The notes below the pieces were generated by a model. That model was given only the letters and a program-made list of their open reading frames with translations. It searched no databases and was not told the origin of the DNA. Made by a program: the position numbers and the translations under genes. Positions 2,544 to 35,518 of a stretch of DNA of 64,000 nucleotides are shown here, piece by piece; position 1 is the first letter of the stretch; each line of letters opens with the position of its first letter. The DNA lies in the NCBI GenBank assembly GCA_963783575.1, contig CAWAOD010000015.1:1-64000 (forward strand). The letters are read 5' to 3'. Origin of the DNA: an uncultured Spirochaetota bacterium. GTDB lineage: Bacteria; Spirochaetota; Brevinematia; Brevinematales; JAOACQ01.

Positions 2544-2706
2544 TCTTAACATAATTTGCCTTATCGTCAAGCAATCGAAAAAATCGCGCTTTTTATGCCG
2601 ATTTTCCTGATTCTTTTAACTGAAAACTTTTGAATTGCCCGTCTTTTCTTCATCCCGACGGCTCAATAGTGCAAACGCCTGCCGCAAAGGCTAAATTATG
2701 TTAAGT
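2544..2706. repeat. dif-like hairpin A (inverted XerC/D-like sites, 6-bp and 7-bp spacers)
   Basis: Minus: CTTGACGATAA-GGCAAA-TTATGTTAAGA. Plus: CCTGCCGCAAA-GGCTAAA-TTATGTTAAGT. TTATGTTAA matches the XerD arm of dif. Confidence 0.75.
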
Positions 2707-2945
2707 TGTCATAATAATTTAAACCCTAAAACTTATCATCACCGGTTCCTTTATCATCAGGGTCTATGCCAAGCGTTCGGCGGCGGCGCACCGGAAAAAC
2801 CGGGCTGGCGCATCTATCAAGTCTTCCGCCATGTCCCTCCCCGCCCATACGTCCGCCTCTAGTCTGCCTCGCCATCAAGCCCCTTCCGGACTCCCGACTT
2901 TCGGTTACTAAAAAGCTGGAATTTAAAGATCTTTTTTTTTCAGAT

Positions 2946-3218
2946 CCCGCCAGCCACGAAAATTATACCGCTCAATCAAGAATTATCAAGGGTTAAGTCG
3001 CTGTCTCGCTCCCGGATTCTGCGGAATCCGCCCTTGACAATTCTTGCTTTCGCTGGTTTTGCGGTTAGGCTGGGCGGGTATTAATAATGGTAACGCCCCA
3101 ACTAATAACATCAAAGCGCGAACCGGAAATTTGTCAAGGGCATACACGGACGTATGCGACGATAGGAGTTTACCCTTGACGAATTTCCGGTGAGCCTTAC
3201 AATATCCGTAGTTGGGGC
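2946..3218. repeat. Back-to-back pair of ~125-bp nested palindromes (TCAAGGG...CCCTTGA family) with outward promoter-like motifs
   Basis: 2946-3078 and 3095-3218. Homologues at 19864-20139 (inverted), 34028-34159 and 35050-35180. Confidence 0.7.
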
Positions 3219-3414
3219 TTTCCGGTATTTGGAGTCCGGGGCGTCCCGAATAGAAATATCTATACGGCACTGGATACCGGCGGGACAGATGGGTAAAATT
3301 TTACAGGCAGCTTTTACACTCAGACCGGGTGGGCAGGGCGGTACAGATTTTCTCTACGAGACCCTGTTTTTAGCACCGCGCCTTTGCCTCTCACCACCCA
3401 CTACACCCCGGCAA

Positions 3415-3499
3415 AGTTAACATAAGTGCCGCTTATGGGCAGGCGTCTACTGCGTTTAGCCGGGCTGATCGCTTGACCATAAGCGGACTTATGTTAAAG
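3415..3499. repeat. dif-like hairpin B
   Basis: Plus: CTTGACCATAA-GCGGAC-TTATGTTAAAG. Minus: CCTGCCCATAA-GCGGCAC-TTATGTTAACT. Confidence 0.75.
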
Positions 3500-3686
3500 C
3501 AAGCGGCGGGGATCAGGCTTTGCCTGGCCACGCAAAAACAGGCGGCTTGAGGAGCGGCACTTCCAAACCCGCAGGTAGTGCGAGTCGCGCGAGCCTGCCG
3601 GAGGGGTTGGAATGTGCCCGACGAAAGACGATTTAGCTTTCTCCAGCTTCATACTTTCACCTTCGCCACTGGCTATATCCAAACCA

Positions 3687-3722
3687 TAAAAAAGCCCCTC
3701 GGTTTTTACTCCAAAGGGCTTC
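3687..3722 (-). terminator. Rho-independent terminator after the immunity gene
   Basis: Minus strand AAGCCCTTTGG...CCGAGGGGCTT followed by a T tract. Confidence 0.6.
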
Positions 3723-3727
3723 TTTAT

Positions 3728-4819
3728 CTACTTTCCTTCTTCCTTCAAGTAATAATCAAACACCCACCCCTTGATTGTCTCCTCTCCGTCCTTCTTGGCA
3801 ATCCCCGTATCGATAAAAGCCCAATACCCCTTCTTGTCCCCCACCGTCAAAGCTACATCTGACCGCTTCAAAAGCGTCACCTTCGCTCCCTTGGAGAGCT
3901 TCAACAGCACCGCCCCGTTCGTCGCCGCTTCCGACCGCACGTTTACGTTGTCGCCTGTGAGGATGTAGGTTTGAGTAAGCTGGTTTTGTAATAGTTCAAA
4001 CTTACCATTGTTAAATTTATATTTCTCCACAACAAACGGTTTGCCTTCTTCCACCCTTAGATATGCTGTTAGTATACCATTATTCGTATCAAAAGTAACA
4101 TGACTGTCTAAAATATTTGTAAGAACTTTCTTAAGAAAATTATTTCTTTCAACAAAATCCAATATTCCATTCCCATTAGTCAATTTTTCCGAGTTAAATT
4201 TTGTGTTATATGAATAAAAAGAATCTCCATCATAAAGAATAATAAAGTTACCATAAAAATATATATTCTCATAAATATTTGCATCTTCAATAGCTTTATA
4301 ATATTTGCCATTATACTTTAAAAATAAATATGAACCCGGATCCCAAACTATATTCTGAGGGACTGTATATGAAATAAAAATGTATTCCCCATTTAAATAA
4401 TTAGCCAGAGTCAAGTTAATAGTTCTTTTAAACTTTCCTTCCTCATTCTTAATAACATCAGCCTCTTTCAATAACTGGTAAAATAGCTCTCCATTTTCTT
4501 TATCGGATTTAAACCGGTAAACAGTATCATCAATTTTAATCCAGACGTTTGTCAACCGGTTTTCCGATAAGATATTGAAAGGATCAGGCATAAATGCCCA
4601 CTTTGTATTTCCTACATTTGTCTCATACTCCAAATAAACCAGCCTGTTGCTGTATTTACCCATAATATCTTCGTTAAGCAATTTTAATATCTTTCCATCT
4701 GGCCTGTCATAATAATTCATAGTTTGCGGTTCCTTCAAAATAGCATATTCGCCGCCAAATGAAACGTTTATCGCAATAGTGGTTAATAATAAATAAATTA
4801 ATGTAAATTGTCTACCCAT
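3728..4819 (-). CDS. Secreted protein with C-terminal SH3b domain; probable immunity protein of the upstream orphan toxin
   Basis: Signal peptide MGRQFTLIYLLLTTIAINVSFG (likely start 4819). C-terminal GDNVNVRSEA...KGAKVTLL...W...GWVF is SH3b-like. Directly downstream of the orphan tip. Confidence 0.65.
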   Translation of the reverse strand: MGRQFTLIYLLLTTIAINVSFGGEYAILKEPQTMNYYDRPDGKILKLLNEDIMGKYSNRLVYLEYETNVGNTKWAFMPDPFNILSENRLTNVWIKIDDTVYRFKSDKENGELFYQLLKEADVIKNEEGKFKRTINLTLANYLNGEYIFISYTVPQNIVWDPGSYLFLKYNGKYYKAIEDANIYENIYFYGNFIILYDGDSFYSYNTKFNSEKLTNGNGILDFVERNNFLKKVLTNILDSHVTFDTNNGILTAYLRVEEGKPFVVEKYKFNNGKFELLQNQLTQTYILTGDNVNVRSEAATNGAVLLKLSKGAKVTLLKRSDVALTVGDKKGYWAFIDTGIAKKDGEETIKGWVFDYYLKEEGK

Positions 4820-4835
4820 AAATGCCCCCGATTCC

Positions 4836-5838
4836 TTACTTAGAGGTAATAACAAACCATATAACTTTATCCGCAGTGTAATTAGCAAATCTGGGATTTG
4901 AATACCCCATTGTCTGTGCGTTAATCTGCTGCGAATATGCCGAGCCGGGGTCGTTTAATGTATAACTCACTGGCGTGTTATTATAATCGCTTATTTCTCC
5001 TGTTAGATTTACATAGTGATATTTCCCGGCGCCATTTGAAACTTCAACTATTGAATTTTGACCGCTCTGGATGTTTCTAGAAAGGTTTCCTGAAATATCC
5101 GTTGATGGGTGCTCGTATGCAACATTATAATTTAGATTTTGTGAATCTAAATACCTTTCAACTAATCTCTTTGGATTATTGAGAACTAGCTCCTGTATAT
5201 AAAGTATTCCCTTGTGCATCTTTTTGATTAGCAAGATTATTTAATTCTTCAACCGTTACGGTCTTATTTATTCCTAAACGTTTGAACTCATCGTTCAGAT
5301 CGTTGGCTATCGCTGTAATGAAACAACCGCTTGTTCCAATTCGGTTACTGTTAATACTATCATTTATCGAGTCAATTTGCTCACTTAGATAAAATACTTT
5401 TAATCGCTTATCACTATCGGATATACTTGAATCAAGCATTGTTGAAACTATTTCGGTTTGCAATTCAGATTTTTTACTTTGCAATTGACTTTCATAATTC
5501 CTGTTCATCACTGGATCTTCATATGTATGATTTTCATCATTGTATTGTTTTAAATTACTACCTGAGTTTGTTAAAGATGTGTCTTGAAATCCTATGTAAT
5601 CTTGAGGGTTTGGTGTAAATGTCGAAACTCCTGTATCTGTACCAATACCCATATATTCTTGGGAGGTTCCATTCTCCTGTGTTGAAATGGGGGGTCTCCT
5701 CCCTGTAGACCCTTTTTCTTTTTCCCTCAATAAATTAGACGCTTTTTTCTTTTTACATTTTATGATTTCCGCTTTCGCTTTAACCATCAAAAGCATTATA
5801 GCGGCCCGCCTCCTGGTTTCAATCACGGATTGCAGCAT
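4836..5838 (-). pseudogene. Element leader fused to orphan Rhs toxin tip 2 (C39/papain-like peptidase), split by a frameshift near 5190
   Basis: ORF 5176..5838 has SGCFITAIAN (Cys); the overlapping ORF 4836..5234 has HYVNLTG and NDPG (His/Asp), together a C39-like catalytic set. Leader resembles that of 24457..25470. Confidence 0.65.
5684..5712. other. Putative recombination junction (leader/toxin tip 2)
   Basis: GAAATGGGGG-GTCT-CCTCCCTGTAGACCC aligns without gaps to 25280-25308. Core GAAATGGGGG also occurs in rhs at 37687-37696. Confidence 0.6.
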
Positions 5839-5841
5839 TTT

Positions 5842-6093
5842 CTATACGGCCAATTCATATTCTTCTACCGGTACGCTCATCAAAGATGCCGGTTTCTTCT
5901 TATCCGAATAGATTTCAAAGAAATCCTTTTCAATTTTTTCTAAAACTTCACCTTTGAAATATCGTTCTCCGCAAAACTCGCAAACCTCGCAGGGTACATT
6001 TTCAACAACCATCATCTTACCATCGTGTTTGTAAATATATTCGACTTTTGATTCTTTTAGATTCTTGTTCCCGCAAAAACTACAAATTTCCAT
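5842..6093 (-). CDS. YgiT/MqsA-type zinc finger antitoxin
   Basis: CSFCG...VENVPCEVCEFCGE. Confidence 0.85.
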   Translation of the reverse strand: MEICSFCGNKNLKESKVEYIYKHDGKMMVVENVPCEVCEFCGERYFKGEVLEKIEKDFFEIYSDKKKPASLMSVPVEEYELAV

Positions 6094-6096
6094 ATC

Positions 6097-6408
6097 TCAT
6101 TTACCTCTTTCATAAATATTCTTGAATTTCGGCGGGGATGGGATATATACCGTTATCAGAACCAGCCAGCCGTCTTTTTCTCCGCATAATCCATGAATGG
6201 GAATTCCGCTATCCGAAAAACCCGCGACAAGAACACATGACCCCCTTCCGGTATCCTCATATTCTTCAATAACCCTGCCATTAATAATAGCGCTTTTTAT
6301 GTCCGCTACAGTAAGATTATCATCGGTTCTTTCAGTATCCGCATGATTGGAAAAATAATATTCTTTCCTTATCAATTTTTCCTTTATCCAATCAATCGTT
6401 ATTTCCAT
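6097..6408 (-). CDS. DUF4258-family putative toxin
   Basis: FSNHA...I.NG.VIEEY...SCVLVAG...PIH...VLITVYIP; paired with a YgiT-type zinc finger. Confidence 0.8.
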   Translation of the reverse strand: MEITIDWIKEKLIRKEYYFSNHADTERTDDNLTVADIKSAIINGRVIEEYEDTGRGSCVLVAGFSDSGIPIHGLCGEKDGWLVLITVYIPSPPKFKNIYERGK

Positions 6409-6431: not shown

Positions 6432-7451
6432 TTAGCCTTCTTTTGACTTTTGAACAAATTTTCCGCTATCTTTATTCCATTCTAAAATATAGCTTTCTCT
6501 CGATATTACATCAAAATACAATTCGTTTTCCAGCGGGTGGTATTTCCGGTAAATCTCCTTCAAGTAAGCAGTCGAAAGGTTCAAATAAATCTGCGTTGAA
6601 TCAAGCGAGCTATGCCCAAGTAAAAGCTGAACTTCTCTAATATCCGCACCGGCATTTAAAAGGTGAGTAGCGAAGGAATGTCGGATGATATGAGGGTAAA
6701 CCGCCTTTGTAATTCCCTGTTCCTCCTTAATCTTACGGATGATGCCTGAAAGGCCGCCGGTTGTTAAAGCCTTGCCGAAGCTGCCTAGAAAAAGCTTCCT
6801 TGACTGGTCTTTCTTTCGGGGAAGCCGGGAATATTCCAGCCTGATCTTTTTAATGTATTGCACAAGGTACTTTATCGGCGTTTCACCAAGCGGTAAAATT
6901 CTGTCTTTCTTGCCTTTGCCGTTTCTTATGAAAAGCATTTTCTCATCAAGGAAAATATCCGTTACTTCCAGATTACAGAGTTCCCTTGCCCGGATTCCGG
7001 TTCCGTAAAGAAGTTCTAAAATTGTCCGGTTCCGGAAGTCGAGCGGGTTGTCCACCGGAACGGAATCGATAAAGTCCCGCATTTCTTTTTCTGAAAGAAC
7101 TTTGTCCCGGATGTTATGCCGCTTTCCCTTCATTTCAACATTACCGAAAGGGTTCTGAAGGATTTTATCTTCTCTTTCAAGTATTTGAAAAATCCGCTTC
7201 ATGGCCATAGCATCTTTTTGAACGCTTTCTTTTTTGATGCCTCTTTTAGAGCTTTTCTCAAGATATTCCATAAACCCGTAAATATCGCTTTCCCTCACAT
7301 CCCGGAAATCAGGAATCTTTCTGCTTTCAAGATAATCATTGAAGCGTTTCAGTATGCGATTAAGGCTTTGTATAGAGCTTTGGGAATAGTTCCGGCTGGT
7401 GAGGACTTCGGAAACGATCGTCTTGACGACTTCAAAAGTAAGTTCGTTCAT
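6432..7451 (-). CDS. Tyrosine recombinase (XerD-like), copy 2
   Basis: ELLYGTGIRAREL, GKGKKDR, HIIRHSFATHLL, LLGHSSLDSTQIY (R-H-R-H-Y catalytic residues). Confidence 0.95.
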   Translation of the reverse strand: MNELTFEVVKTIVSEVLTSRNYSQSSIQSLNRILKRFNDYLESRKIPDFRDVRESDIYGFMEYLEKSSKRGIKKESVQKDAMAMKRIFQILEREDKILQNPFGNVEMKGKRHNIRDKVLSEKEMRDFIDSVPVDNPLDFRNRTILELLYGTGIRARELCNLEVTDIFLDEKMLFIRNGKGKKDRILPLGETPIKYLVQYIKKIRLEYSRLPRKKDQSRKLFLGSFGKALTTGGLSGIIRKIKEEQGITKAVYPHIIRHSFATHLLNAGADIREVQLLLGHSSLDSTQIYLNLSTAYLKEIYRKYHPLENELYFDVISRESYILEWNKDSGKFVQKSKEG

Positions 7452-8707
7452 GCTTTTGCCTCTCGTGGATGAAACTTGAGAAGCGTCAATCTGAGATGCT
7501 CCGGCGAAAGCTTTGTATAGCGTTCCGTTGTCGCCAGCTTTTCATGGCCTAAGAGGTCGGAAACCTGTTTGATTCCGGCTCCGTTCTCAAGCAAGTGAGA
7601 CCCGTAGGAATGCCGGAAGCAATGACAGGTTATCTTTTTCTTTATCCCGGCTTTAGAGCATGCTTTTGATAAATACCTGTTTACTGTTTCATTGCATGGG
7701 ATTTTCCCTTCGTAAGCCGATGGAAAGACACGAGTGCCTTCTACAAAGCCCCGGCAAACCAGAGGGCGAACGTTATCAATAAAAAGCTTCAGGTAGGCGG
7801 TTCCGACATCGCCAAGCTGGACAATCCTTTCCTTGTTAGTCTTTGTCTCAAATATGACGGCTTCCTGATTTTCAAAATTAATATCCTCGATCTTTAAGGC
7901 CAATAACTCGCCGATCCGCACGCCGGAGGAATAAAGGACAACCTGAATCGTTTTAAGCATAAATTCAAAAGGGGTTTCAGCCTTGACGTTAAACAGCTTG
8001 ACAACCTCTTTCCTTGATAGAATATTTCTTGAAACCTTGTCTTCAGCCCTTACGCTTCCCATCTGCCCGGAGAAACCGGCGCATAAGCCTTTCTTTGAAA
8101 GAAATATAAGGAATGGTTTGACAAGGTTTGTTTTCTGCCTCAATGTAGACGGGGCGTAAAGGCGATTGCCTTTCTTGTCTGTCTGATCGGCAAGATATTT
8201 AACGTAATCTTTTACATCATCCCGGCGGAGATCGGTAAAGCTGTTTACATTCCGTTCAAAGACAAGATACTTCAAAAAGTTCCGGGCATGCTCGGCAAGC
8301 CTGCCGGTTGTGGAAGCGGGATATCCTTCATTTTTCCGCTTTACAACGTATTCAAGGCAAATGGAACGCAATTCCTCCGGCAGCCCGGCGTATAGGTCAA
8401 TCTGAGGCTTGCCGCCGCCGGTTTGTTCAATTGTAAGCCCGCAATATTTCAAGAAACAGCGGGAAACCTGTATATACGTGCGGATTGTCTCTTTTGATTT
8501 GCCATTACCGGCGAGATAAACGGAAAAGGCTTGGATATCGGCTTTTGTGAGGGCTTGCAGCTGTTCGGGATCAGTAATATTAAGACTTTCTTTGAGAAAA
8601 GACGTAAAGGCAATGAGAGCGTTCTTTTTGACAATCAAACCCTGCCTCTTGAAGTTCCGGACTTCGTAGTATGAAAGGAAGTTTTGAATTAACTTTTCTA
8701 TCGTCAT
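7448..8707 (-). CDS. Tyrosine recombinase with extended N-terminus (XerC-like), copy 2
   Basis: LYSSGVRIGEL, HCFRHSYGSHLL, LLGHEKLATTERY. Start MTIEKL at 8707 from RBS and homology to 27175..28455. Confidence 0.93.
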   Translation of the reverse strand: MTIEKLIQNFLSYYEVRNFKRQGLIVKKNALIAFTSFLKESLNITDPEQLQALTKADIQAFSVYLAGNGKSKETIRTYIQVSRCFLKYCGLTIEQTGGGKPQIDLYAGLPEELRSICLEYVVKRKNEGYPASTTGRLAEHARNFLKYLVFERNVNSFTDLRRDDVKDYVKYLADQTDKKGNRLYAPSTLRQKTNLVKPFLIFLSKKGLCAGFSGQMGSVRAEDKVSRNILSRKEVVKLFNVKAETPFEFMLKTIQVVLYSSGVRIGELLALKIEDINFENQEAVIFETKTNKERIVQLGDVGTAYLKLFIDNVRPLVCRGFVEGTRVFPSAYEGKIPCNETVNRYLSKACSKAGIKKKITCHCFRHSYGSHLLENGAGIKQVSDLLGHEKLATTERYTKLSPEHLRLTLLKFHPREAKA

Positions 8708-8751
8708 TTTGTTATCCTCTTTTTTAGGGTGTATGCCTCCCCCGGAAACGC

Positions 8752-8870
8752 TGACCCACTCCTTTTGAGGCTCACCTCTTTTTCTAATCCATTGCAATTA
8801 ATAAAAATATAAAAGAGGCTGGCCTCAAAAGTGGGTCTGACCCGGTTTGACCCGCTCTGACCCACTTTTG
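8752..8870. repeat. TGACCC iteron-like repeats, candidate replication origin (copy 2)
   Basis: AAAAGTGGGTC-TGACCCGGTT-TGACCCGCTC-TGACCCACTTTT with 10-bp periodicity, directly downstream of the primase gene. Confidence 0.55.
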
Positions 8871-8885: not shown

Positions 8886-11699
8886 TCATAAGCCTTCCGG
8901 CTCTCTTTTTTCAACTGCCCCACTTTGAGACATGCCTCTTTCATGGATCTTTTTTCCCATTTCCTCCGGAGTGGGAATGATCGACAGGTCAAGCTTTCCC
9001 ATATCTTCATCAGCGTAAAGCGAATAAAAGGCAGTTCCGCCCCTGTGTGTGTTTCCTCTGACCCTGATATATTCATATTCCGTCAAAACCCGCAGATATC
9101 GCTTGACAAACATCTGATTTAAGTTTGTCCTTTCCCTGATCTCCCTTTGTGTCAGGCTCACTTCTTCCGGCTTTAGGTTTTCCCGGTTCGCTTTCTCCTT
9201 GAGTATCCGGCGTATTTCATTATAAAGAAAAGCGGCTTGATGGGGGATATCATCCATTGTCGCCCCTAATATTCCTTTCACCATCACATTGTAGCCGATC
9301 CTGTAATCGTCAATGTCGCATTCGATGTATTCCGTCAGCCCTTCCCACCTGACGGGCTTCTGATATTGCCTTAAAAAGCATACGCAGGCGATCAAGTCCA
9401 TAAACCGGTCGTTGTCCCGCCTTGTTCTCATTAAATGGCTGGGGAAATCGAGGAACTCACCAAAAGGATTGACGATTAAAACCTTTCGTAAAAGCCGCTG
9501 CGCTGACTGATGCTTTTTGACGATCCCCGGTACAACATGAAGTTTTTCAAGGTGTCTGTCAAGCGAATACTTCTTGCGCTGGGCGGCGTGGATGCGCTGG
9601 GTCTGGTCCTGTGATTCATCGATGTGGGTCACAAAATACCTTGAAAGGTTTTCAGGGTTCAGGTTCTGCTTGGTTGTTGAAAGTACACTGGCAACGATCA
9701 TGGGAGTTTTCACTATCTTTGACGACATTTTCCCCGTTTTCTCATCTTTTGTCGTTACCAGCCTGGACAGTTCCTTTCTCGAAAGCATTTCCCTGATCTG
9801 GTGCTCTACAATATCGGAATGTACGGACTCGCCCAGCGTGAAGAATTTATGCTTGAAATCTTCGACATAGTTTAAAGCCTGATCGGAAAGGCTGGTTATA
9901 GCTACAACGTCCCTTTGAGGCACAAGCTTTTCAACCGTTTCCACAAGGTAGGACTTTCCGGCGGCGGATTCCGACAAAATAAGAATACTGATGGGATCGT
10001 CAAGTATACGGGAGCTGGCGCAGATATATAAAAGCTGTTTGTTCAAATCCTCGCCGACATAACCAATCTTTTCCATGTCTTTTACGATCTCGTCAAACAG
10101 GTTCGGGCTTTTCAGGAACTTTAACCCGGTTTCCCGTTCTTCATCCGTAAGGGCTGGCATTTCGGCGGTCTTTTCGCTCTCTTTCGCCTTCCTGTCCCGT
10201 TCCGCCTCGAAATAGTCAACAATTACCGAAAGGTCTTTTTCAACCCGTTTCGGCTCCACGCCGAGAAGCCTTGAAACCTGCAAAGCGAAAGAAGAACGGG
10301 AACGTGCGGAATATAAATCGATATTGTCAAAATACCGTTCGGTTGATATTCCGGGACATTCCGCCCTCACATTAACCCGGAGGCTTGTAATAAATACATC
10401 CTTGATGCCTGAAACCTTGTAAAGCATGTCGGAAATATAAAAAACAGTATTGAAACCTTCCTGACTCACTTTGAAAGAAGCTTCAAGCCCTTCCGTCTCT
10501 TTCTCTTTCTCGAAAATAGCGGCCTGTTCAATAAGGGCTTTTAAGTCTTCCTTTTCCAACTTCCCGGCTGTTAATGCCTCATTCCAGTCTTTACCGCCGA
10601 AAGGAGAAACAATTTTCACCCGGAAACCTTCGTTAATAAGGATTTCTTTTAGTTTCCCGCTTGCTGTTTGTCCTGCTTCATCATTATCAAGGGCCAGAAT
10701 GACCGTTTTAATCCGGTCGGCCTTCAAAATCTCAAGATGTTCGTCAGTAAATCCGTTTGTTCCATAGATCGGCTGGACATTCTCAAATCCGGTTTCAATG
10801 AGGCTAAGACAGTCAATAATGCACTCCGTTAAAATGATTTCGTCATAGACCTTTGAGGCTTTACGGTTGAAAACGCCCTGATGCTTGCCCTTTAGATAGC
10901 GATGTTTGAAACTGGAAGCGTCATCGATGTCACGACCATAAAAGGAAACGGTGTTTCCGCTGTCATCGAAGATCGGGAATATAACGCAGTTTAAGAAATG
11001 TTCTTTTCCATACTCATTAAATATACCAGCTTCGGTTAATTCTTTTCTCTGGCTTTCTCCGGTAACAAGGTTTAAGCATCCATCAGCAAAGCCGATCTGA
11101 AAGCGTTCGTAATATTCCGTGTTTGTTAAGCCTCTTGCCTTGAGATATTCGAGGGCTTCCGGATGATCAAAAAGCCTTTTATGATAATAGTTTTTAACCG
11201 TGTTCAAGTCTTTGATTCTTTCGTCTTCTGAAGAAGATAAAACTACATTGGATGAGTTAACCGGAGGTTTTCCTCCTTTATTCGTGCTGGTATTCGTAAG
11301 CGGCAGTTCGGCGGGAATCGATGAAAATGAGACTTCGCCAGCGGTAAAGGCTGGCGCGCCTCGCCAATCTTTCAGGAACTTCAAAGCCTCTTTGAAATCA
11401 AAGCCTTTCATCTTTTCCACCAGGTCGAAGGCGTCTCCGGCTTCTCCGCATCCGAAGCAGTTATATAAACCTTTTTCTTTATCGACCGAAAGGCTGGCCG
11501 TTTTGTTGTCATTATGCCACGGGCAAAGCCCTTTAAAATTCTTGCCGACTTTTAAGAGCTTCACGTTAAAATAGGCGAATAATTCAACAATATCAATATT
11601 CTTCTTTATGTCGTCCTTCTCGAATTCTTCAAGGAATCCTCTAACTTTCAAAGTCTTTTGCCCCTTTAGAAGGTCTTTTTTCGGAGGCATACCGGTCAT
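8886..11699 (-). CDS. DNA primase: CHC2 zinc finger, Toprim and C-terminal P-loop/helicase-like domain (copy 2)
   Basis: CPWH/CFGC, ILTECIIDCLS, ALDNDEAG, KDWNE, SESAAGKS. Confidence 0.9.
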   Translation of the reverse strand: MTGMPPKKDLLKGQKTLKVRGFLEEFEKDDIKKNIDIVELFAYFNVKLLKVGKNFKGLCPWHNDNKTASLSVDKEKGLYNCFGCGEAGDAFDLVEKMKGFDFKEALKFLKDWRGAPAFTAGEVSFSSIPAELPLTNTSTNKGGKPPVNSSNVVLSSSEDERIKDLNTVKNYYHKRLFDHPEALEYLKARGLTNTEYYERFQIGFADGCLNLVTGESQRKELTEAGIFNEYGKEHFLNCVIFPIFDDSGNTVSFYGRDIDDASSFKHRYLKGKHQGVFNRKASKVYDEIILTECIIDCLSLIETGFENVQPIYGTNGFTDEHLEILKADRIKTVILALDNDEAGQTASGKLKEILINEGFRVKIVSPFGGKDWNEALTAGKLEKEDLKALIEQAAIFEKEKETEGLEASFKVSQEGFNTVFYISDMLYKVSGIKDVFITSLRVNVRAECPGISTERYFDNIDLYSARSRSSFALQVSRLLGVEPKRVEKDLSVIVDYFEAERDRKAKESEKTAEMPALTDEERETGLKFLKSPNLFDEIVKDMEKIGYVGEDLNKQLLYICASSRILDDPISILILSESAAGKSYLVETVEKLVPQRDVVAITSLSDQALNYVEDFKHKFFTLGESVHSDIVEHQIREMLSRKELSRLVTTKDEKTGKMSSKIVKTPMIVASVLSTTKQNLNPENLSRYFVTHIDESQDQTQRIHAAQRKKYSLDRHLEKLHVVPGIVKKHQSAQRLLRKVLIVNPFGEFLDFPSHLMRTRRDNDRFMDLIACVCFLRQYQKPVRWEGLTEYIECDIDDYRIGYNVMVKGILGATMDDIPHQAAFLYNEIRRILKEKANRENLKPEEVSLTQREIRERTNLNQMFVKRYLRVLTEYEYIRVRGNTHRGGTAFYSLYADEDMGKLDLSIIPTPEEMGKKIHERGMSQSGAVEKREPEGL

Positions 11700-20139: not shown

Positions 20140-20233
20140 CCGTTTCCATCGTTCCAATCCGGGGAGCCGTTCAGCGCTCCGCAGAACCTCATAACTTCAC
20201 TGGCACGCGTTTAGGAAAGTCAAGTATTATGGA

Positions 20234-20404: not shown

Positions 20405-20414
20405 TTTGTTCCTC

Positions 20415-25643: not shown

Positions 25644-26134
25644 ATATTACTCCCTGTATCGTTTTCCATCAATTCTTCCGGTGTACAAATTTGCGGCATA
25701 TCAAAGCCCAATCTCTGGTTCAACCGGGCAAGTTGTGCCTTCATATGAAGATTTGCCAGATGCGAAAAATTCCATGTTAATAAACAATCCATTTTGTAAT
25801 GAACGGCATAAGCAATATGAGTCATATCCCTGTAAAGTTTATCCGATAAATTAAAATACTCCATATATTTCAAGGCGGTTTCTTCAACTTCAGGTGTTCC
25901 CGGAAGGTTAGTTATTCCTTTTACCAGTTCCAACCGCTTATCAACATAGACCGAATCTCCCCTTTCAATTTCATCCAGCACAACATCAGAAATATACAAA
26001 TCATATTTTTGCCTTTCATTATCCCACCAATCTATTGTGATTTTCTGACGTATAAGAACAAGAGCATTTTCGCTTAACTCAGAAACCCTGTAGCTCGGTA
26101 TGGATGAATCAAGATAAATTTTGTCTTTTTCCAT
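25640..26134 (-). CDS. PIN-domain (VapC-like) ribonuclease toxin
   Basis: IYLDSSIPS, ISDVVLDEI, D..HIAYA, LLTWNFSHLAN. Confidence 0.85.
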   Translation of the reverse strand: MEKDKIYLDSSIPSYRVSELSENALVLIRQKITIDWWDNERQKYDLYISDVVLDEIERGDSVYVDKRLELVKGITNLPGTPEVEETALKYMEYFNLSDKLYRDMTHIAYAVHYKMDCLLTWNFSHLANLHMKAQLARLNQRLGFDMPQICTPEELMENDTGSNI

Positions 26135-28455: not shown

Positions 28456-28484
28456 TTCAGGGGTATACCTCTCTCCAAAAACTA

Positions 28485-28627
28485 TGACCCAGTTTAGTAA
28501 ATCCCTTGTTAATAAAGGGTTCTCTACTCGAAATCTGGGTCAGACCCAGTTTTACCCAGTTGACCCAGTTTACTTTAATCTATTGAAATATATGAAAATA
28601 TATTACTATTACCATGTTGACCCAGTT
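28485..28627. repeat. GACCCAGTT iteron-like repeats, candidate origin (copy 1)
   Basis: About five copies of (G/T)ACCCAGTT, an inverted CTGGGTC and an AT-rich tract. Confidence 0.55.
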
Positions 28628-31406
28628 AGCTTTCTAATTCCTTATCCTTACTGCTTTTTTCACTTTTTACCATGGGAATGTCCGGATTTTCTATCGGACG
28701 GCCGTCTTTCAGCCGGTAAAATCCTTTCGACCTTTCCCTGCCGCCCCTCACAAGCTCGATATATTCCAGATCGACAAGTTCCCGCAGGTTCCGCTTTATC
28801 CAGCAATGCTCGAATCCTGTCTTTTCCCTGATGTCCCTCTGCGTAAACCGGATTTCATGGACTTTTAACCCGTTCTTTTCCGATATCTCCCTTGCCATAT
28901 CAAGCAGGGCGTGATGCAGTTCAGCCGCGCTTTTCGATATTTCCAGCAAAGATGATGACATTGCAGCGTTTTTCATAATATTACAGGCTATTTCAATGTC
29001 CTTATCATCGCATTCTATGTATTCCAGTCCTTCAGAGGTTTTTATCTCTTTCTGGTACTGCCGCAGGAAGCATACGCAGGCGATCAGGTCCATAAACCTG
29101 TCGTTATCCCTGCGCGTCCGCATAAAATTGTCCGGGAAATCAAGCTTTCCAGCTTCAGGATTCACGATGACAAGTTTCCTGAGCATCCGCTGCGCCGCAT
29201 GGTGCTTTTTAATGACAGGCGGGATCTGTTCCGACTTCTCCATATACCTTTCAAGCGAATATTTCCGCCTCTGCGCCTCGTGGATTCTACGGGTCTGTTC
29301 CCGGCTCTCGTCCGTATTGACAACAAAACACCGTGAGGCATTTTCAGGATTGATGTCATGCCTTGTCGAACTCATCACGCTGGCCACAATGGTCGGTTTC
29401 CGGATATGTACGGTATCCATCTTCCCAGTTTTCTCATCCTTAACCGTTACAAGCCTTGAGAGTTCATGGCCTGAAAGCATTTCCCTGATTGAATGCTCGA
29501 TTTCGTCAGAGTGAACGGCTTCGCCAAGTATAAGAAACTTGTGCATAAGGTCTTTGATATAATTTAAAGCCTGATCTGAAAGAGAGGTAACGGCGATGAC
29601 ATCCTCCGGCGGTATAAGCTTCCTTACCGTATCGACAAGCATGGACTTTCCGGAAGCGGATTCCGAAAGAATCAAAACCGATATCGGGTCGTCAAGTATG
29701 CGGGAACTGGCGCAAAGATAAAGAAGCTGTTTGTTCAAGTCCTCGCCGACATAGCCTAATGTTTCCATATCCCTGACAATCTCCTGAAACAGATCGGGAT
29801 TTTTCAGGAATCGAAGCCCCGCTTCCCGTTCTTCTTCCGTAAGCCTTGGCTTTTCCTCCGACTTCCTTGCTTCAAGGGCTTTTCTGTCCCGTTCCGATTC
29901 AAAATAGTCAACTATATCGGTAAGATCGTTCTCAATCCGCTTTGGCTCCAGACCGAAAGCGCGCGAAAGCGACCCGGCGAATGAAGCCCTTGACCTGGCC
30001 AGGTACAAATCCAGATTGTCAAAGTACCGGTTTCCATCATATTCAGCCTTTATGTTCACTTTTATACTTGTAACAAAAGCTTCTTTCAGACCGGCAACTT
30101 TGTAAACCACCGGCGCGCCTTCTGAATTGCCGAAGGTAAAGGCTGTGAAATACTCATCTTTTGACACCTTGAACAAAGCTTCGGTTCCGTTTTCTTCAAT
30201 CTCGAATATCGCCGCTTGCTCAATAAGAACAGTCAAATCCTCTTTTTTGAGCGTGCCGGCCGTAAGCATCTGATTCCAGTCTTTAGTGGCCCCCGAGTAT
30301 ACCGCTCCCTGCTTTGCAGCACTATCGAGGGGCCACGGAGCGACAATCTTAACCCGAAAGCCTTCGGAAATAAGCTTTTCTTTCAATTTATCGCTGGCCA
30401 GACTCCCGGCTTCATCCGCGTCCAGAGCCAGAACTATAGTTTTAACCCGGTCGGCTTTCAAAGTTTGTAAATGTTCTTCGGTAAAGCCATTCGTTCCATA
30501 AATAGCCTGGACATTCTCAAAACCTATTTCAATTAAAGAAAGAGCGTCAATAATGCTTTCGGTCAGAATGATTTCATTATAAACCTTTGATACTTTGCGA
30601 TTGAATACGCCTTTATGGGAACCTTTCAAATATCGATGCTTAAAGCTGGAATTATAATCAATATCACGACCGTAAAAACCTACAGTCTGGCCGCTATCAT
30701 CAAAAATGGGAAAAACAAGGCAGTTTAAGAAATGTTCAGAGCCTTTGTCATTGAATATTCCCGCTTCGGTTAATTCTTTCCTCTGGCTTTCACCAATGAC
30801 AAGGTTTAAGCCGCCATCCGCAAAACCGATCTGAAAGCGTTCATAATTTGAGGTGTTCGTCAAGCCCCGTTTCTTGAGATAATCAAGAGCTTCCGGATGG
30901 TCAAAAAGTCTTTTGTGGTAATAGTTCTTTACTGTATTAAGGTTGTGAATGACCGGTTGGTGAGCCTGTCGAACCACGGTCTCTGTGGACGTTTGTTTTT
31001 CTTCGGGTTTGACTTCCATCTTTCGAACCGTTAAAGGAAGCTCTTTTACAGGGTTTCCCGACCATTCTTTTAAGAATTTTAATGCTTCTTTGAACCCGAA
31101 CCCTTTCACCTTCTCCACAAGTGTAAAAGCGTCTCCGTCCTCTCCGCATCCGAAACAGTTGTATAAGCCTTTTTCACGGCTCACCGAAAGGCTGGGCGTC
31201 TTGCTGTCTTTATGAAACGGGCAAAGCCCCATATAATTTTTACCGACTTTTGAAAGTTTCACATTAAAAGATTCAAACAACTCAACAATATCAATATTCT
31301 TCTTGATGTCGTCCTTTTCAAATTCTTCAAGGAACCCGGTGACTTTCAGGGTTTTCTGGCCTTGTAGCTTGTCATTCTTTGTATTCAAAGGATTTTTCAT
31401 AAGCAT
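28626..31406 (-). CDS. DNA primase: CHC2, Toprim and P-loop domain (copy 1)
   Basis: CPFH/CFGC, LTESIIDALS, ALDADEAG, SESASGKS. Confidence 0.9.
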   Translation of the reverse strand: MLMKNPLNTKNDKLQGQKTLKVTGFLEEFEKDDIKKNIDIVELFESFNVKLSKVGKNYMGLCPFHKDSKTPSLSVSREKGLYNCFGCGEDGDAFTLVEKVKGFGFKEALKFLKEWSGNPVKELPLTVRKMEVKPEEKQTSTETVVRQAHQPVIHNLNTVKNYYHKRLFDHPEALDYLKKRGLTNTSNYERFQIGFADGGLNLVIGESQRKELTEAGIFNDKGSEHFLNCLVFPIFDDSGQTVGFYGRDIDYNSSFKHRYLKGSHKGVFNRKVSKVYNEIILTESIIDALSLIEIGFENVQAIYGTNGFTEEHLQTLKADRVKTIVLALDADEAGSLASDKLKEKLISEGFRVKIVAPWPLDSAAKQGAVYSGATKDWNQMLTAGTLKKEDLTVLIEQAAIFEIEENGTEALFKVSKDEYFTAFTFGNSEGAPVVYKVAGLKEAFVTSIKVNIKAEYDGNRYFDNLDLYLARSRASFAGSLSRAFGLEPKRIENDLTDIVDYFESERDRKALEARKSEEKPRLTEEEREAGLRFLKNPDLFQEIVRDMETLGYVGEDLNKQLLYLCASSRILDDPISVLILSESASGKSMLVDTVRKLIPPEDVIAVTSLSDQALNYIKDLMHKFLILGEAVHSDEIEHSIREMLSGHELSRLVTVKDEKTGKMDTVHIRKPTIVASVMSSTRHDINPENASRCFVVNTDESREQTRRIHEAQRRKYSLERYMEKSEQIPPVIKKHHAAQRMLRKLVIVNPEAGKLDFPDNFMRTRRDNDRFMDLIACVCFLRQYQKEIKTSEGLEYIECDDKDIEIACNIMKNAAMSSSLLEISKSAAELHHALLDMAREISEKNGLKVHEIRFTQRDIREKTGFEHCWIKRNLRELVDLEYIELVRGGRERSKGFYRLKDGRPIENPDIPMVKSEKSSKDKELES

Positions 31407-31415
31407 TGCAACCCC

Positions 31416-32180
31416 CTAAACCAGATTCAAACGGTTTAAGAGTTCTTCGCCTATGGCCTTTACTTCTTCGGCGGCTTTTGACGGCCTTCCGTCTATTCTT
31501 GGCCTCGATATAACGCCGGTTTTTAAGGATATCGCTTCTTCTATGCGAATCGACTTTGATAAAGCGGTATTAAATACCTTTTCCCCAAAAGCAGTGCGGA
31601 TTTCTTCCACGATCTGCCTGGTAATCACCGGGTTTGAATCAAAGGCGTTTATGATAACCCCGAGGAGCTGCAAGCCCGGATTAAAATTCTTTCGAACTTT
31701 CGCCACCGTAGCCATGAGGTCATTAGTTCCCTGCATTGAATATAGACTTGGGTTCATCGGAATAATAAGCCAGTCGGAAACCGTTAAAGCGTTGCCGGTA
31801 AGAATACTTAAAGACGGCGGGCTGTCGATTAAAATGAAGTCGTAGGCTTGAAAGCCTTCACCAGAAAGCAGGTCTTTCAATTTTGTGAAAGCATCCAGTT
31901 CACCAATAAGTGATTTTTCAAGGCTGGCCAGCTTGACATCGCCTGAGAGAAGCCATAAGTTTTCTTTTACCTGTTCCGGCTCGAAGTCGGTACCGGTCAA
32001 AGCTTCATATAGGCCAAAGCCAGGAATATCGACAAGGGATTTTGAAAGGTTGCCCTGCGGATCGGCGTCAATAACCAGCGTTTTGTGCCCCATTGCCGCC
32101 AGCCAGATCGAAAGGTTGAAGGTTAAAGTTGTTTTACCAACGCCGCCCTTTTGGTTGGATAATACGATTGTTTTTGACAT
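31416..32180 (-). CDS. parA: ParA/Soj family ATPase (copy 1)
   Basis: NQKGGVGKTT, IDADPQGN, IDSPPSL. Confidence 0.92.
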   Translation of the reverse strand: MSKTIVLSNQKGGVGKTTLTFNLSIWLAAMGHKTLVIDADPQGNLSKSLVDIPGFGLYEALTGTDFEPEQVKENLWLLSGDVKLASLEKSLIGELDAFTKLKDLLSGEGFQAYDFILIDSPPSLSILTGNALTVSDWLIIPMNPSLYSMQGTNDLMATVAKVRKNFNPGLQLLGVIINAFDSNPVITRQIVEEIRTAFGEKVFNTALSKSIRIEEAISLKTGVISRPRIDGRPSKAAEEVKAIGEELLNRLNLV

Positions 32181-32190
32181 AGCCAGCCCC

Positions 32191-32466
32191 CTAATTGGAT
32201 TCGGGGGCTTTGAGACGCATTTCTTTCTTCACATTTCCCAACAATGCGTTTAAATGAACGTAAGCCCGGCGGAAATCCAGAAGATTAACCGTAGCCTGGC
32301 CGTTGAAGTATTCAATCTGCGCCTGAGTTAGACCTTCGCCTGTGAAGGTAAATTTTCCGGCTGGCTTTTTGGCTTCTCTGGCAAGTTCGACTTTTTCAAC
32401 CGAATAGCCGAGGCAGATATAATACCCGGCCTCGTAATAATCCGAAGTGATTAAGGTTTGCAACAT
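32191..32466 (-). CDS. Small conserved protein (DUF5659-like), copy 1
   Basis: Homology to the other copies; GGAGG RBS. Confidence 0.7.
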   Translation of the reverse strand: MLQTLITSDYYEAGYYICLGYSVEKVELAREAKKPAGKFTFTGEGLTQAQIEYFNGQATVNLLDFRRAYVHLNALLGNVKKEMRLKAPESN

Positions 32467-32508
32467 GTTCTCCTCCTTAATATTTCGGAGGAAAACGCCT
32501 CGAATGGA

Positions 32509-32737
32509 TTGATTAAAGCTTCAGCTTATGCTATAATAACTTAGGTAAGTTTCGAGGAGTTTTCCTCACTTATGGCTCTGCTTTCAACTTGTCTAGGGCG
32601 GAAAGCAGGGCTTTTCTTTATCTCTAAAGATTTTAAAAACAGGCTTTTTAAGCTTGTTTTTTTAAGCAAAATACATTCATATATACACTTATTATGTTTG
32701 TTACATTAATTATATATTATGGGTAAATTTTTGTCAA
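32509..32737. promoter_or_regulatory. Convergent promoters and putative antisense RNA (copy 1)
   Basis: Plus TTGATT-17-TATAAT at 32509-32537; minus TTGACA-17-TATAAT at 32709-32737; hairpin GGCTCTGCTTTC...GAAAGCAGGGCT. Confidence 0.6.
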
Positions 32738-33447
32738 GCACAATTTTAAAAAGAAGAAAAAGAAATACTTACTTGATTGGTAAAAACTTTAAAGAACTTA
32801 GAAAAAATGAAGGATTTACACTTGAAGTCTTGTCCAATAAGACCAAAATTCATATTGAACCATTAAAGCAATATGAAAGTAATCTATACTCACCAAACCT
32901 AAATAATCTTAATAAGCTCTCTAATTTCTATGGTGTTTCTATCGATTTTCTTATCCTATGGGACAAAACTAATTACATCAGAAGTACCAGGTTAATTGAA
33001 CTGTCGAAAATTATTGACAAACTCGACCAGGTGAAACGGTTTCAAGTTGAATCCACAGCCATGACCCTTATAGGAGATAAGATTTCCAACGTTTTCGTTA
33101 AAGAAGATTCTTTTGATTTGACCAATGATATACATTTAAACCTGAAACAGCTTCGGGAGAGCAGTAAAGTTTCACAAAATAATATTGCTGATTATCTAAA
33201 CATTTCTCAAGGCTTGGTAGCAAACTATGAACGAATAACTATCCCTCCACTGGATAATTTAATCAAGCTTGCAGAGTTCTTCAGTGTGTCCATTCATTCT
33301 TTGGTTACAGGAGAAAATCTGACTTTTCAGTTAGCTAACAATGGATTGAAAGATTCCGTCTTGAAAGCAGACCAGTTGCTTAGTATCAAAGATAAAAGTT
33401 TTCTCATTCTTTTGATGGATAAAATTATCATGGAAACAAAAACCTGA
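32719..33447 (+). CDS. XRE-family repressor with two HTH domains (true start probably near 32773)
   Basis: Two HTH repeats; related to 12981..13652. Confidence 0.85.
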   Translation: MGKFLSSTILKRRKRNTYLIGKNFKELRKNEGFTLEVLSNKTKIHIEPLKQYESNLYSPNLNNLNKLSNFYGVSIDFLILWDKTNYIRSTRLIELSKIIDKLDQVKRFQVESTAMTLIGDKISNVFVKEDSFDLTNDIHLNLKQLRESSKVSQNNIADYLNISQGLVANYERITIPPLDNLIKLAEFFSVSIHSLVTGENLTFQLANNGLKDSVLKADQLLSIKDKSFLILLMDKIIMETKT

Positions 33448-33629
33448 TAACTTTATCGTCCCCAAATAAACAAAAGCATTGAAATTAAAGAATAGCTTCT
33501 TGTCCCGACATTCGGCTCTCGTCGGGCACCCTTGAAATCTCCGGCGCGTTCACCGTCCTCACACTGCCTGCGCTTTCAACGGTGCCACTCCTCAAGCCGC
33601 CGGTTTTTCCGGTGCGCCACTCGCCTCTC

Positions 33630-33790
33630 TCTTAACATAATTTGCCTTATCGTCAAGCAAGCGACACAATCGCACTGAATATACCGATTTTGATTTTTTA
33701 AACAATAAGCTTCTGAATTTCCTGTCTTTCCTTCATCCCGAAGGCTCAATGGCTGCAAACGCCTGCCGCTAAGGCTAAATTATGTTAAGT
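33630..33790. repeat. dif-like hairpin E
   Basis: Arms almost identical to hairpin A (GGCAAA and GGCTAAA spacers). Confidence 0.75.
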
Positions 33791-34027
33791 TGTCTCAGTT
33801 CTACTTTTTTAAAGCTTTATCCTTTCCGGTTCTTTCATCATTAGGTTCTGAGCCAAACGTTCGGCGGCGCCACACCGGAAAAACCGGGCTGGCGCTTCGG
33901 CGACAGACTGCGCCATGTCCCACCCGCCCATACGTCCGCCTTTAGCCTGTGCCATCATCAAGCCCCTTTCGGACTCCCATCTTCGGTTATCAAAAAACTG
34001 GAATTTAAAGATCTTTCTTTTTCAGAT

Positions 34028-34159
34028 CCACCCAGCCATGAATATTATACCATTCAATCAAGAATTATCAAGGGTAAAGTCGCTGGCCCGCTCCCGGATT
34101 CTGCGGAATCCGCCCTTGACAATTCTTGCTTTCGCTGGTTTTGCGGTTAGGCTGGGCGG
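34028..34159. repeat. TCAAGGG/CCCTTGA palindrome
   Basis: Homologous to 2946-3078. Confidence 0.7.
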
Positions 34160-34229
34160 ATATTAATTAATAAAACTAAAGTAATTTTTATATTATTCGA
34201 CATATATTATAAAAAAAGAGGTTAACTCT

Positions 34230-35048
34230 ATGAATCACAAGAGAATTCAAATTCTGAATATCTACTCCAGACAAAAAAAATCTTCAAATAATATTTTATC
34301 TGATGTAATAACTATAACATTAATTACTTTGATATTCTCTATCGTATTTTATTCATATGAAATAGGTTATGCCGACTATTTTGGTTACAATTATTCATTA
34401 ATAAAAGTAACACTTTTTGGAAGAATACTTTCAATTTTTTCTTTGTCATTGTATTCTAATTTTACCGTTATTATTGTTCTCATTTTTACCATTATTATAT
34501 TATTATATGCACGTATGCTATCACCAAAAAAGGTTATTCCGTATAAGACAAAAGTTAAAATATTAATTCCAATTTTACTATTGTCAATTAAATACTTAAT
34601 TATACCCCCCGTTATGTTTCTGCTCATTAAATATCTCGTATCTGATAAACATCTTGTCTCTTTTAATTACATAATTGTTCCAATATATGTGATTCTTCTC
34701 TTAATTAATATCCAAAAATATTTTAAAGTATTAGACAGATTTAAAAATATAAGTTCTTTTTTTATAGATACATTAAATGATTATGGAAGTATATTCACCA
34801 ATTATATTTATATCTCAATATTTTTGATTTGTATGTCCTATTCTGCAGGTTATAATTACGCTAAAAACAAGAAAATTTTTGAATCTTACGATAATGGAAC
34901 GAACCTAATAATTAATCATTACAATGATTATTCTATTGTTAATTCCAGAATAAATGTATTAAATACTAATAAGGTATATTTTTTCCTTAAAAATGAAGAT
35001 TTAACGAATAAGTATATAACAAATGTTTCTATTACGAATACCAATTAA
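34230..35048 (+). CDS. Very AT-rich multi-pass membrane protein (cargo)
   Basis: GAGG RBS; several hydrophobic helices; lies between two palindromes. Confidence 0.65.
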   Translation: MNHKRIQILNIYSRQKKSSNNILSDVITITLITLIFSIVFYSYEIGYADYFGYNYSLIKVTLFGRILSIFSLSLYSNFTVIIVLIFTIIILLYARMLSPKKVIPYKTKVKILIPILLLSIKYLIIPPVMFLLIKYLVSDKHLVSFNYIIVPIYVILLLINIQKYFKVLDRFKNISSFFIDTLNDYGSIFTNYIYISIFLICMSYSAGYNYAKNKKIFESYDNGTNLIINHYNDYSIVNSRINVLNTNKVYFFLKNEDLTNKYITNVSITNTN

Positions 35049-35049
35049 C

Positions 35050-35180
35050 AAACCCCCAGTAATCAACAACACCAGCGACAGGCAGAAAAATCAAGGATGA
35101 GCGCATCAGCGCGAACGACGACAGGAGCTTGTCCTTGATTTTTCTGAATGGAGCGGTATAATTCTTTTTACTGGGGGTTT
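35050..35180. repeat. TCAAGGA/TCCTTGA nested palindrome
   Basis: AAACCCCCAGTAA...GAAAAATCAAGGA...TCCTTGATTTTTC...GAGCGGTATAAT...TTACTGGGGGTTT. Confidence 0.65.
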
Positions 35181-35359
35181 TTAAATGATCGGTGCTTTAT
35201 CTTGATTTGATTTCCCGGGAGCCGAACGGCACTTGATAGAATAAAAAAAACCTCGCCGGCGCACGGGCGGGTCGGGGCCAGCGACAAAACTTGATGACGG
35301 CGCCAGCCCTGTTTTTAGCGCCGCGCCTTTGCCTCTACCCCGCTTTTACACCCCGGCAA

Positions 35360-35518
35360 AGTTAACATAAGTTCCGCTTATGGGCTGTAATTCCTTCCAC
35401 TGAGCCGTTTTAATAACCGTAAAAGCTGATTTAAGTTTAATAAGAATTGAAAATATATGGCTTCAGAATCGACGCGATTTACTCCCCTGCACAGACCATA
35501 AGCGGACTTATGTTAAAG
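35360..35518. repeat. dif-like hairpin F
   Basis: Plus ACAGACCATAA-GCGGAC-TTATGTTAAAG; minus ACAGCCCATAA-GCGGAAC-TTATGTTAACT. Confidence 0.75.

Follow-up and report, generated by a model that had tools for sequence, protein, structure and literature searches.

The window analysed here is the stretch of 64,000 nucleotides (nt) at the start of contig C15 from an uncultured Spirochaetota bacterium (genome G000, whose other contigs mentioned below are C5, C6 and C14). It holds a tandem array of Rhs-toxin-tip elements, in which hairpins built of inverted dif-like sites recur. Judged from sequence comparison, these hairpins are a real, conserved and strand-biased fold-back site of Xer type, carried by a widespread toxin-swapping element. 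All six hairpins claimed by an earlier note on this DNA are present where it placed them, and its proposal that they are selected to fold as single-stranded DNA (ssDNA) is borne out by covariation, strand bias and a second covarying stem. On the minus strand, the array starts with a full Rhs gene and a putative immunity gene, followed by repeated units with the order hairpin, passengers and a non-coding block, hairpin, helix-turn-helix (HTH) gene, small open reading frame (ORF), ParA, primase, the recombinases Int1 and Int2, a toxin-antitoxin-type gene, an orphan toxin tip and a putative immunity gene.

Each hairpin consists of two inverted 11-n-11 sites, with TTATGTTAA XerD-like arms outside and TAA-ending XerC-like arms toward the loop. 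The spacer is 6 nt long in one site and 7 nt in its partner, and the two are the same apart from one base. Hairpin A (2544-2706, minus strand) has its 6-nt site at 2544-2571 (GGCAAA) and its 7-nt site at 2678-2706 (GGCTAAA), and its minus strand folds better; it is enclosed by an outer stem, S2, in which 2518-2532 pairs with 2785-2799 over 15 base pairs (bp). Hairpin B (3415-3499, plus strand) carries GCGGCAC in the 7-nt site and GCGGAC in the 6-nt site, and its S2 joins 3363-3371 with 3534-3542. Hairpin C (13790-15847, minus strand; GTTGCG and GTTGGCA) is composed of 13790-13876 and 15840-15847, and it is 2 kb long as found and 95 nt without the intron, because a group II intron (intron 1, 13877-15839) splits the XerD-like arm of its 7-nt site. 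The other three are hairpin D (22589-22747, plus strand; GGTCAAG and GGTAAG; S2 22536-22550 with 22750-22764, 15 bp), hairpin E (33630-33790, minus strand; GGCAAA and GGCTAAA; S2 33600-33614 with 33873-33887, 15 bp) and hairpin F (35360-35518, plus strand; GCGGAAC and GCGGAC; S2 35308-35316 with 35553-35561), in which the outer XerC-arm bases are ACAG in both arms, a compensatory change.

The window contains 12 exact matches to TTATGTTAA, 11 of which are hairpin arms, while one (23490) lies within an ORF; the twelfth arm, that of the 7-nt site of hairpin C, is interrupted as TTA|TGTTAA by the intron. A strict paired pattern gave 5 matches in the window (C being split), 3 on contig C5 and 1 on C6, and none in 200 dinucleotide shuffles of the window, which are approximate and can end early. 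Contig C5 carries hairpins G, H and I together with a half site, J (L002:15536, that is C5:35536; spacer GAACAA), for which no partner site was found and next to which lies an rve-type transposase gene. A further strict-pattern match, C6:78033, is located outside the arrays, and on C6 there are also two cases of identical TTATGTTAA contexts lying inverted to each other (552/30673 and 13986/17221).

The earlier note had also held that the 7-bp site always faces the cargo and that hairpins come in inverted pairs. The first part stands in the window, where the 7-nt site faces the inter-hairpin segment in six of six cases, but the pairing is not universal, since single hairpins occur on C5 (hairpin G) and in loci L020 and L064, and E. 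coli has about one per element. A better rule is that the 7-nt site faces the conserved non-coding block, wherever the block is visible. In all five complete inverted pairs (four own, one in genome G001) the two hairpins differ in spacer, so that paired hairpins would not recombine with each other.

We compared 16 spirochaete-type hairpins, of which 9 are from G000, 4 from G001, 2 from one metagenome contig and 1 from a record titled Elusimicrobiales, whose Int1 is 36% identical. The 6-nt spacer matches the long spacer at 6 of 6 bases in 12 of 16 hairpins and at 5 of 6 in the other 4, and when the six spacer classes were permuted, only 1 of 720 arrangements matched as well. In the 15 hairpins used for stem covariation and fixed mismatches (C left out), 8 of 25 stem pairs changed on both sides and 90.6% of cells were paired; the covariation score was reached by none of 500 shuffles, and slid pairings were only 33-43% paired, although such counts overstate significance because the hairpin sequences are related. 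Thus arm complementarity, whose loss in homologous loci would have spoken against folding, is kept. The 1-nt spacer bulge (6 versus 7) occurs in 15 of 16 hairpins, and one XerC-arm mismatch is kept in 15 of 15.

The two strands are not equivalent. Beside 36 transversions, there are 19 transition mismatches, all of which read as G-T on the strand meeting the 7-nt site first and none on the opposite one; the strand with the G-T readings also has the lower fold energy in 14 of 16 cores. Beyond the XerD arms, the outer stem S2 (9-17 bp) differs between hairpins yet stays complementary, with only 9 of 40,320 permutations as good for 8 representatives. Wherever loops are comparable, their orientation with respect to the 6- and 7-nt sites is the same. 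Covariation, the kept mismatch, the one-strand wobbles and the covarying S2 therefore argue that a single-strand fold is selected. The strand meeting the 7-nt site first is predicted to fold into one complete dif-like duplex closed by S2, and the predicted layout has the XerD arm at the base, six paired spacer bases with one bulge, the XerC arm with its fixed mismatch and a variable loop.

The Xer-type nature of the arms, another point of the earlier note, is supported by comparison with dif. The host genome has XerC and XerD genes and a single-copy dif at C14:285668-285695, ATTTCCTATAA-GATATA-TTATGTTAAGT, in the 11-6-11 format; it is conserved with at most 2 mismatches in 11 of 11 same-family genomes and lies 16 kb from the cumulative GC-skew peak of the contig. 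The dif spacer is GAAATA in three kin and TATATA in family f4. Every one of the 32 spirochaete-type sites has G as its first spacer base, which is also the base in the host dif; of the 12 proteobacterial sites, 11 have T there, which is the base in E. coli dif. The arms of the Shigella/E. coli-type long site are 20/22 identical to those of E. coli dif. The host dif is intact on C14, away from the arrays on C15 and C5, and the spirochaete spacers agree with it at the first base only.

The element reaches far beyond this genome. In the phylum search, Int1 was found in 3 of 401 genomes, own included. Strict pairs occur in 4 of 79 scanned loci (L018, L019, L020 and L061, with L020 and L061 the same sequence), and L064/L048 came to light when 19 loci were scanned with a profile; the hairpin region is missing from most true relatives, which are short contigs. 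Primase homologues of about 30% identity lie in the same gene order behind cdiA or rhs in Proteobacteria and Bacteroidota, and the same primase with two recombinases is found on Leptospira plasmids. Among 15 plasmid loci of the wider family, 5 have a clear pair of a 6-nt and a 9-10-nt site, for instance with spacers TCAGCA and TC[CCCG]AGCA in Providencia, TCCGCA and TCC[CCC]GCA in Shigella, and TTTGCG and TTT[CCAA]GCG in Caballeronia; one more has a degenerate pair and one only a loop-less fused site. At L103:10135-10165 and at L113:8501 and 16186, XerD-like arms are fused via a 9-nt spacer, as if loop and XerC arms had been deleted. The circular "plasmid" records L102 (11.3 kb) and L117 (8.8 kb) are each about one element unit and may be free circles or collapsed tandem repeats.

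Among 5,426 E. coli genomes, 56 have the hairpin, at 194 places in all, and 56, counted separately, have the element integrase, at 196 places. Three E. coli arrays were opened, and all are at a vgrG-rhs locus, one of them about 60 kb from dif, so a location of these arrays at dif was rejected. At E 1e-30, none of 50,697 phage records matched the element primase, and IMG/VR returned only 5 weak zinc-finger matches.

The place where the element joins the toxin gene is another site. A conserved, attachment (att)-like 45-nt toxin-junction motif stands before the orphan toxin tip at 5668-5712 (minus strand) and again at 25264-25308 (minus strand), where homology to the full Rhs gene begins inside the motif; the matching target stretch in the full Rhs gene is 37659-37703 (minus strand), and homology with orphan tips begins at 37684. 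All seven spirochaete units examined have this motif ahead of their toxin tip. The spirochaete tip-swap junction is deep in the C-terminal region, about 280 codons before the Rhs gene ends, rather than at the usual end of the core. The enterobacterial junction, CCC(G/T)AT|GA(C/T)CCGATAGG, is sharp, palindromic and located at DPIG codons (8 orphan tips, 5 loci). By these alignments the integration junction is most naturally read as the motif in the toxin gene, separate from the hairpins. Handling it would be the natural job of the element recombinases, which would leave the hairpins to host Xer. Cargo capture at the spacers, one of three roles proposed by the earlier note, finds no support, with integration at this separate motif and no integron-type integrase: the recombinases score 114-117 against TIGR02249 (integron integrase; cut-off 265), and the IntI insertion of about 25 aa is absent from both. 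A structure model of Int1 (predicted template modelling score 0.42) matches XerA, IntI4 and XerD alike, and in the E. coli element Int the XerD helix-J position is occupied by Arg. P, a 574-aa homologue of Int1 in L064, seems to carry a third core-binding-type domain.

The conserved non-coding block is present three times in the window, as copy 1 (2950-3220, with four CCCTTGA/TCAAGGG repeats in both orientations), inverted copy 2 (19864-20136) and partial copy 3 (33982-34167). There are 4 such repeats per full block copy versus a genome average of 0.12 per kb; by analogy with P4, these repeats in both orientations suggest that the block is a candidate replication origin. The block and the two hairpin-module types are arranged in either order, and segments between hairpins are found in both orientations. 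Here the flank similarity continues 70-100 nt outside the 6-nt site, so these orientation changes were not crossed over at the spacers, and inversion there, as the earlier note had suggested, is not supported either. Hairpin G is the exception: it is of I type through the outer flank, loop and XerC arm and of A type from TAA|G of the 7-nt site, with the parent switch exactly at the border of XerC arm and spacer, and its 6-nt spacer matches the newly acquired 7-nt spacer.

Taken together, the hairpin is very probably a folded DNA site for a Xer-type recombinase, and we consider it reasonably likely that host XerCD is involved. That its role is resolution or circularisation is about an even call, and of the three roles in the earlier note, element resolution is the likeliest. 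In the mechanism we propose, the element's own recombinases would integrate and excise the element at the Rhs-gene junction and thereby swap the toxin tip. The primase-helicase would replicate the element from the non-coding block and expose single strands, and host XerC and XerD would bind the folded favoured strand. XerC would then exchange one strand pair at TAA|G with a same-spacer copy, as on CTXphi attP(+), and replication would complete the reaction. The outcome would be unit circles cut from multimers or tandem arrays, or a unit added, and the element Ints would insert the circle into a toxin gene. The spacers might serve as specificity tags, with differing spacers keeping neighbouring units from deleting one another. 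For the whole chain, a strand-specific fold-back Xer site of a self-replicating toxin-tip element at which host XerCD resolves unit circles, our confidence falls slightly short of even.

Several observations weigh against this account. Of the 19 wobbles, 12 fall in a single column, number 28, where 12 of 15 hairpins have G-T, and in six proteobacterial pairs the wobble bias runs the opposite way (7 versus 3). S2 is weak or absent in 4 of 16 hairpins (C, E20, K18a and K18b), and the pair at L064:428-506 has equal spacer lengths of 6 and 6. The tracking of the first spacer base is confounded with lineage; the spirochaete arms match their own dif at 15-18 of 22 positions and E. coli dif at 15-18 of 22; and the helix-J comparison does not separate the candidate binding enzymes. 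The hairpin G chimera is a single case and could be gene conversion. The Lonsdalea and Enterobacter pairs, which are among the five clear ones, match poorly in spacer. No pair was found in 8 of the 15 plasmid loci, in L107 or, in L057, within 9 kb downstream of Int2, and a recognisable site is thus not needed for an element to last. In E. coli, the 6-nt spacer is identical in every copy surveyed, and the idea of spacer tags therefore rests on the spirochaete arrays. Public run X1 holds only contigs of a relative, and in them there is no joint at a hairpin.

A wider version of the proposal, which we regard as doubtful, is that a reversed-polarity fold-back site by the origin lets Xer act as terminator and circulariser (or even as a protelomerase-like capper) of primase-helicase replication, with the bulged spacer as a programmable barcode that decides between which units recombination takes place, and that the toxin-swapping elements using host XerCD in this way form a cross-phylum class.

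The best of the competing explanations, though an unlikely one, is that the folded hairpins are substrates of the element recombinases (Int1/Int2, or a single XerC-like Int working with host XerD), which might capture, excise or invert passengers in the manner of an integron. Int1 and Int2 are intact, resemble Xer and are encoded beside the sites, the E. coli element Int has the helix-J Arg mentioned above, the inter-hairpin segment holds variable passengers in either orientation, and the invariant first spacer base could serve as attC-like micro-homology. However, the separate att-like junction requires an enzyme, the IntI insertion is missing with scores far under the integron cut-off, the orientation breakpoints lie outside the sites, and many elements have one hairpin and thus nothing to invert. 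Moreover, swaps between unlike hairpins should yield mismatched spacers, and none is seen.

It is less probable that Xer does both exchanges between a folded and a same-spacer duplex site to give loop-capped linear ends, or that Xer binds without recombining and signals a stop of replication or a single-strand origin to the primase. In the reaction of attP(+) with dif, according to the relevant passages of PMC3442271, missing homology on the XerD side blocks the second exchange, which would give a covalently closed linear molecule; in the hairpins, unlike attP(+) versus dif, both spacer ends are paired. The long site faces the candidate origin as well, and the flanks are highly structured. Against capped ends, no linear form is seen, the circular records L102 and L117 of about one unit (perhaps assembly artefacts) point the other way, and XerD catalysis normally requires an activator, as stated in the part of 10.64898/2026.06.12.731946 that deals with it.

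Still harder to maintain is the view of two independent duplex sites, pdif- or cer-like, kept alike by gene conversion or template switching, with the fold as a by-product. In its favour, the 6-nt site has the canonical 11-6-11 layout of a dif-like site, modules of Acinetobacter plasmids are bordered by inverted pdif sites (described in passages of PMC7315799), and hairpin G and the loop-less D-9-D site in L103/L113 show local repair or slippage. This duplex-only explanation fits poorly because conversion would erase the 6/7 difference (kept in 15 of 16) and the XerC-arm mismatch (kept in 15 of 15); it predicts neither a one-strand wobble bias nor a covarying outer stem, and the loop orientation is constant relative to the two sites where comparable. 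Finally, a fold acting in RNA as a regulatory or processing structure, with the likeness to dif incidental or ancestral, is very improbable: a G-T wobble is a G-U wobble too, and the intron in hairpin C would splice out of favoured-strand RNA, but the invariant columns exactly match the Xer-binding core TAA-spacer-TTATGT, there is no Rfam match at the hairpins and the favoured strand runs both ways relative to the element genes.

For the genes of the array, the head is the full-length Rhs gene (36855-48116) with its putative immunity gene (35975-36844), both on the minus strand. Between hairpins F and E lies a passenger ORF (34230-35048, plus strand; 272 aa, no family match), followed by the second full core (26159-33447) with HTH (32719-33447, plus strand), a 91-aa ORF (32191-32466), ParA (31416-32180) and primase (28626-31406), the last three on the minus strand, then Int1 (27175-28455) and Int2 (26159-27178), on the minus strand as well. 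The minus-strand segment 22939-26134 holds a PIN gene (25640-26134), an orphan Rhs tip (24457-25470) with 84% identity to the Rhs C-terminus, a putative immunity gene (23574-24446) and a 212-aa ORF. The passengers between C and D (16097-22339) are a GHKL-ATPase/restriction-like gene (16097-17872, plus strand), a radical SAM gene (20415-21728, minus strand) and a 209-aa ORF (minus strand).

The other full core has an HTH regulator (12981-13652, plus strand) and, on the minus strand, a 92-aa ORF (12474-12752), ParA (11701-12462), a CHC2/Toprim DnaG-type primase (8886-11699), Int1 (7448-8797) and Int2 (6432-7451). The C-terminal P-loop motif SESAAGKS at residue 588 of this primase points to an additional helicase role. 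Int1 is a tyrosine recombinase with a second N-terminal helical core-binding-like domain and a start probably at 8707, and Int2 is a XerC/D-like tyrosine recombinase with catalytic residues present. The region 3728-6408 (minus strand) contains a DUF4258 gene (6097-6408), a putative toxin tip in two overlapping ORFs (5176-5838 and 4836-5234) and an SH3-bearing putative immunity gene (3728-4888). A third core (1-2300), cut by the contig end, has the primase start, ParA (531-1340), a 101-aa ORF and HTH (1941-2300), and contig C5 carries three more cores. The contig ends (window 146-529 and C5:1-2600) break within different primase copies, 76% identical and both read in two frames; since both break inside primase copies, the array probably continues across the assembly gap. 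Upstream of the Rhs gene, 50382-63999 encodes a subtilase and a very large protein of 3412 aa with Ig-like/Y_Y_Y repeats, which might be partners in delivery or processing.

Besides, group II introns have entered conserved motifs of the element. Intron 1 (13877-15839, minus strand; reverse transcriptase 14037-15362) has a candidate exon-binding site 1 (EBS1) at 15637-15652, complementary to the 5' exon CTTAACA. Class C group II introns have a CGC triad. The domain V of intron 1 starts with GAGCC (AGC triad), and this triad together with the XerD-arm target sets it apart from the group IIC-attC introns. The 11-nt arm hit by intron 1 is also present in the host dif, and intron 1 may target XerD boxes; relatives at 49-60% identity have no dif-like exon. 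Intron 2 (17890-19863, minus strand; reverse transcriptase 17980-19374) sits at the edge of the non-coding block and has a near-identical copy on C5. The EBS1 candidates of introns 2 and 3 match their own exons, which lie in conserved element motifs.

Folded single-strand recombination sites are so far known mainly from integron attC and CTX-type phages, and here the fold-back design recurs, with opposite polarity and away from dif, in Rhs/CdiA-diversifying elements from a spirochaete to E. coli. If Xer indeed acts on the hairpins, a core chromosome-segregation enzyme would gain a use beside dif integration, plasmid dimer resolution and pdif modules, which would bear on the open question of how orphan toxin-immunity arrays form and spread. 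With the site present about once per element in 56 complete E. coli genomes, the question is open to standard XerCD assays, and natural spacer variants would reveal the tolerance of Xer on folded DNA. In a literature search that covered few subscription papers or theses, no description of the hairpins or of the element mechanism was found, and the proposed borrowing of host XerCD via fold-back sites away from dif is apparently undescribed. The enterobacterial form may, however, have been treated in a thesis on "toxin-carrying DNA elements", reportedly with an integrase and XerD. XerC/D-like genes are mentioned near immunity loci in PMC3482391 and single dif sites near Neisseria vgrG clusters in PMC10210955, in passages without fold-back pairs, and the sections consulted of PMC8138268 do not mention the primase of the family.

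Among known systems, the closest model is CTXphi attP(+) and not attC, which the earlier note had favoured, although the element is not a CTX-class integrative mobile element exploiting Xer. Like the hairpins, attP(+) has two inverted dif-like sites about 100 nt apart with unequal spacers (12 and 7 nt in NC_015209) and folds from one strand. It also has unpaired bases in spacer and arms, as passages of PMC3442271 describe, comparable with the 1-nt bulge (15/16) and XerC-arm mismatch (15/15) of the element. In the accounts given there and in part of 10.64898/2026.06.12.731946, XerC swaps one strand pair on folded attP(+) and replication resolves the junction. The differences are that in CTXphi the XerD arms face the loop and the XerC arms are outside, whereas the element has its XerD arms at the base; that CTXphi integrates at dif, whereas the element arrays are in Rhs/CdiA genes with dif intact elsewhere; and that the element has a primase-helicase, its own recombinases and its own junction, with no filamentous-phage or HUH Rep gene among the element ORFs scanned.

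With integron attC, as portrayed in passages of PMC5027507, the hairpins share a folded single-strand site, an extrahelical base, a variable loop, a strand bias and a conserved base at the putative crossover. However, their arms are Xer-type TAA-spacer-TTATGT and not RYYYAAC/GTTRRRY boxes, their spacer is paired with the bulge inside it, and their sites alternate 6-7/7-6 and do not flank single gene cassettes; neither recombinase is integron-type, and the IntI insertion (I2 helix) treated in a section of PMC2095811 has no counterpart in the element Ints. Acinetobacter pdif modules, in the portions of PMC7315799 concerned, likewise have inverted XerC/D sites with variable spacers around passenger genes, but pdif are single 28-bp 11-6-11 duplex sites, whereas the element ends are covarying, folding 6/7 pairs whose passenger-facing sites have 7-bp spacers. 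The same gene order, in tandem behind a full toxin gene, is found in Rhs/CdiA orphan toxin-immunity arrays with a PRK01287-type "XerC" and a CHC2/Toprim primase, from which the spirochaete form differs in having two Ints, ParA and often two hairpins per unit.

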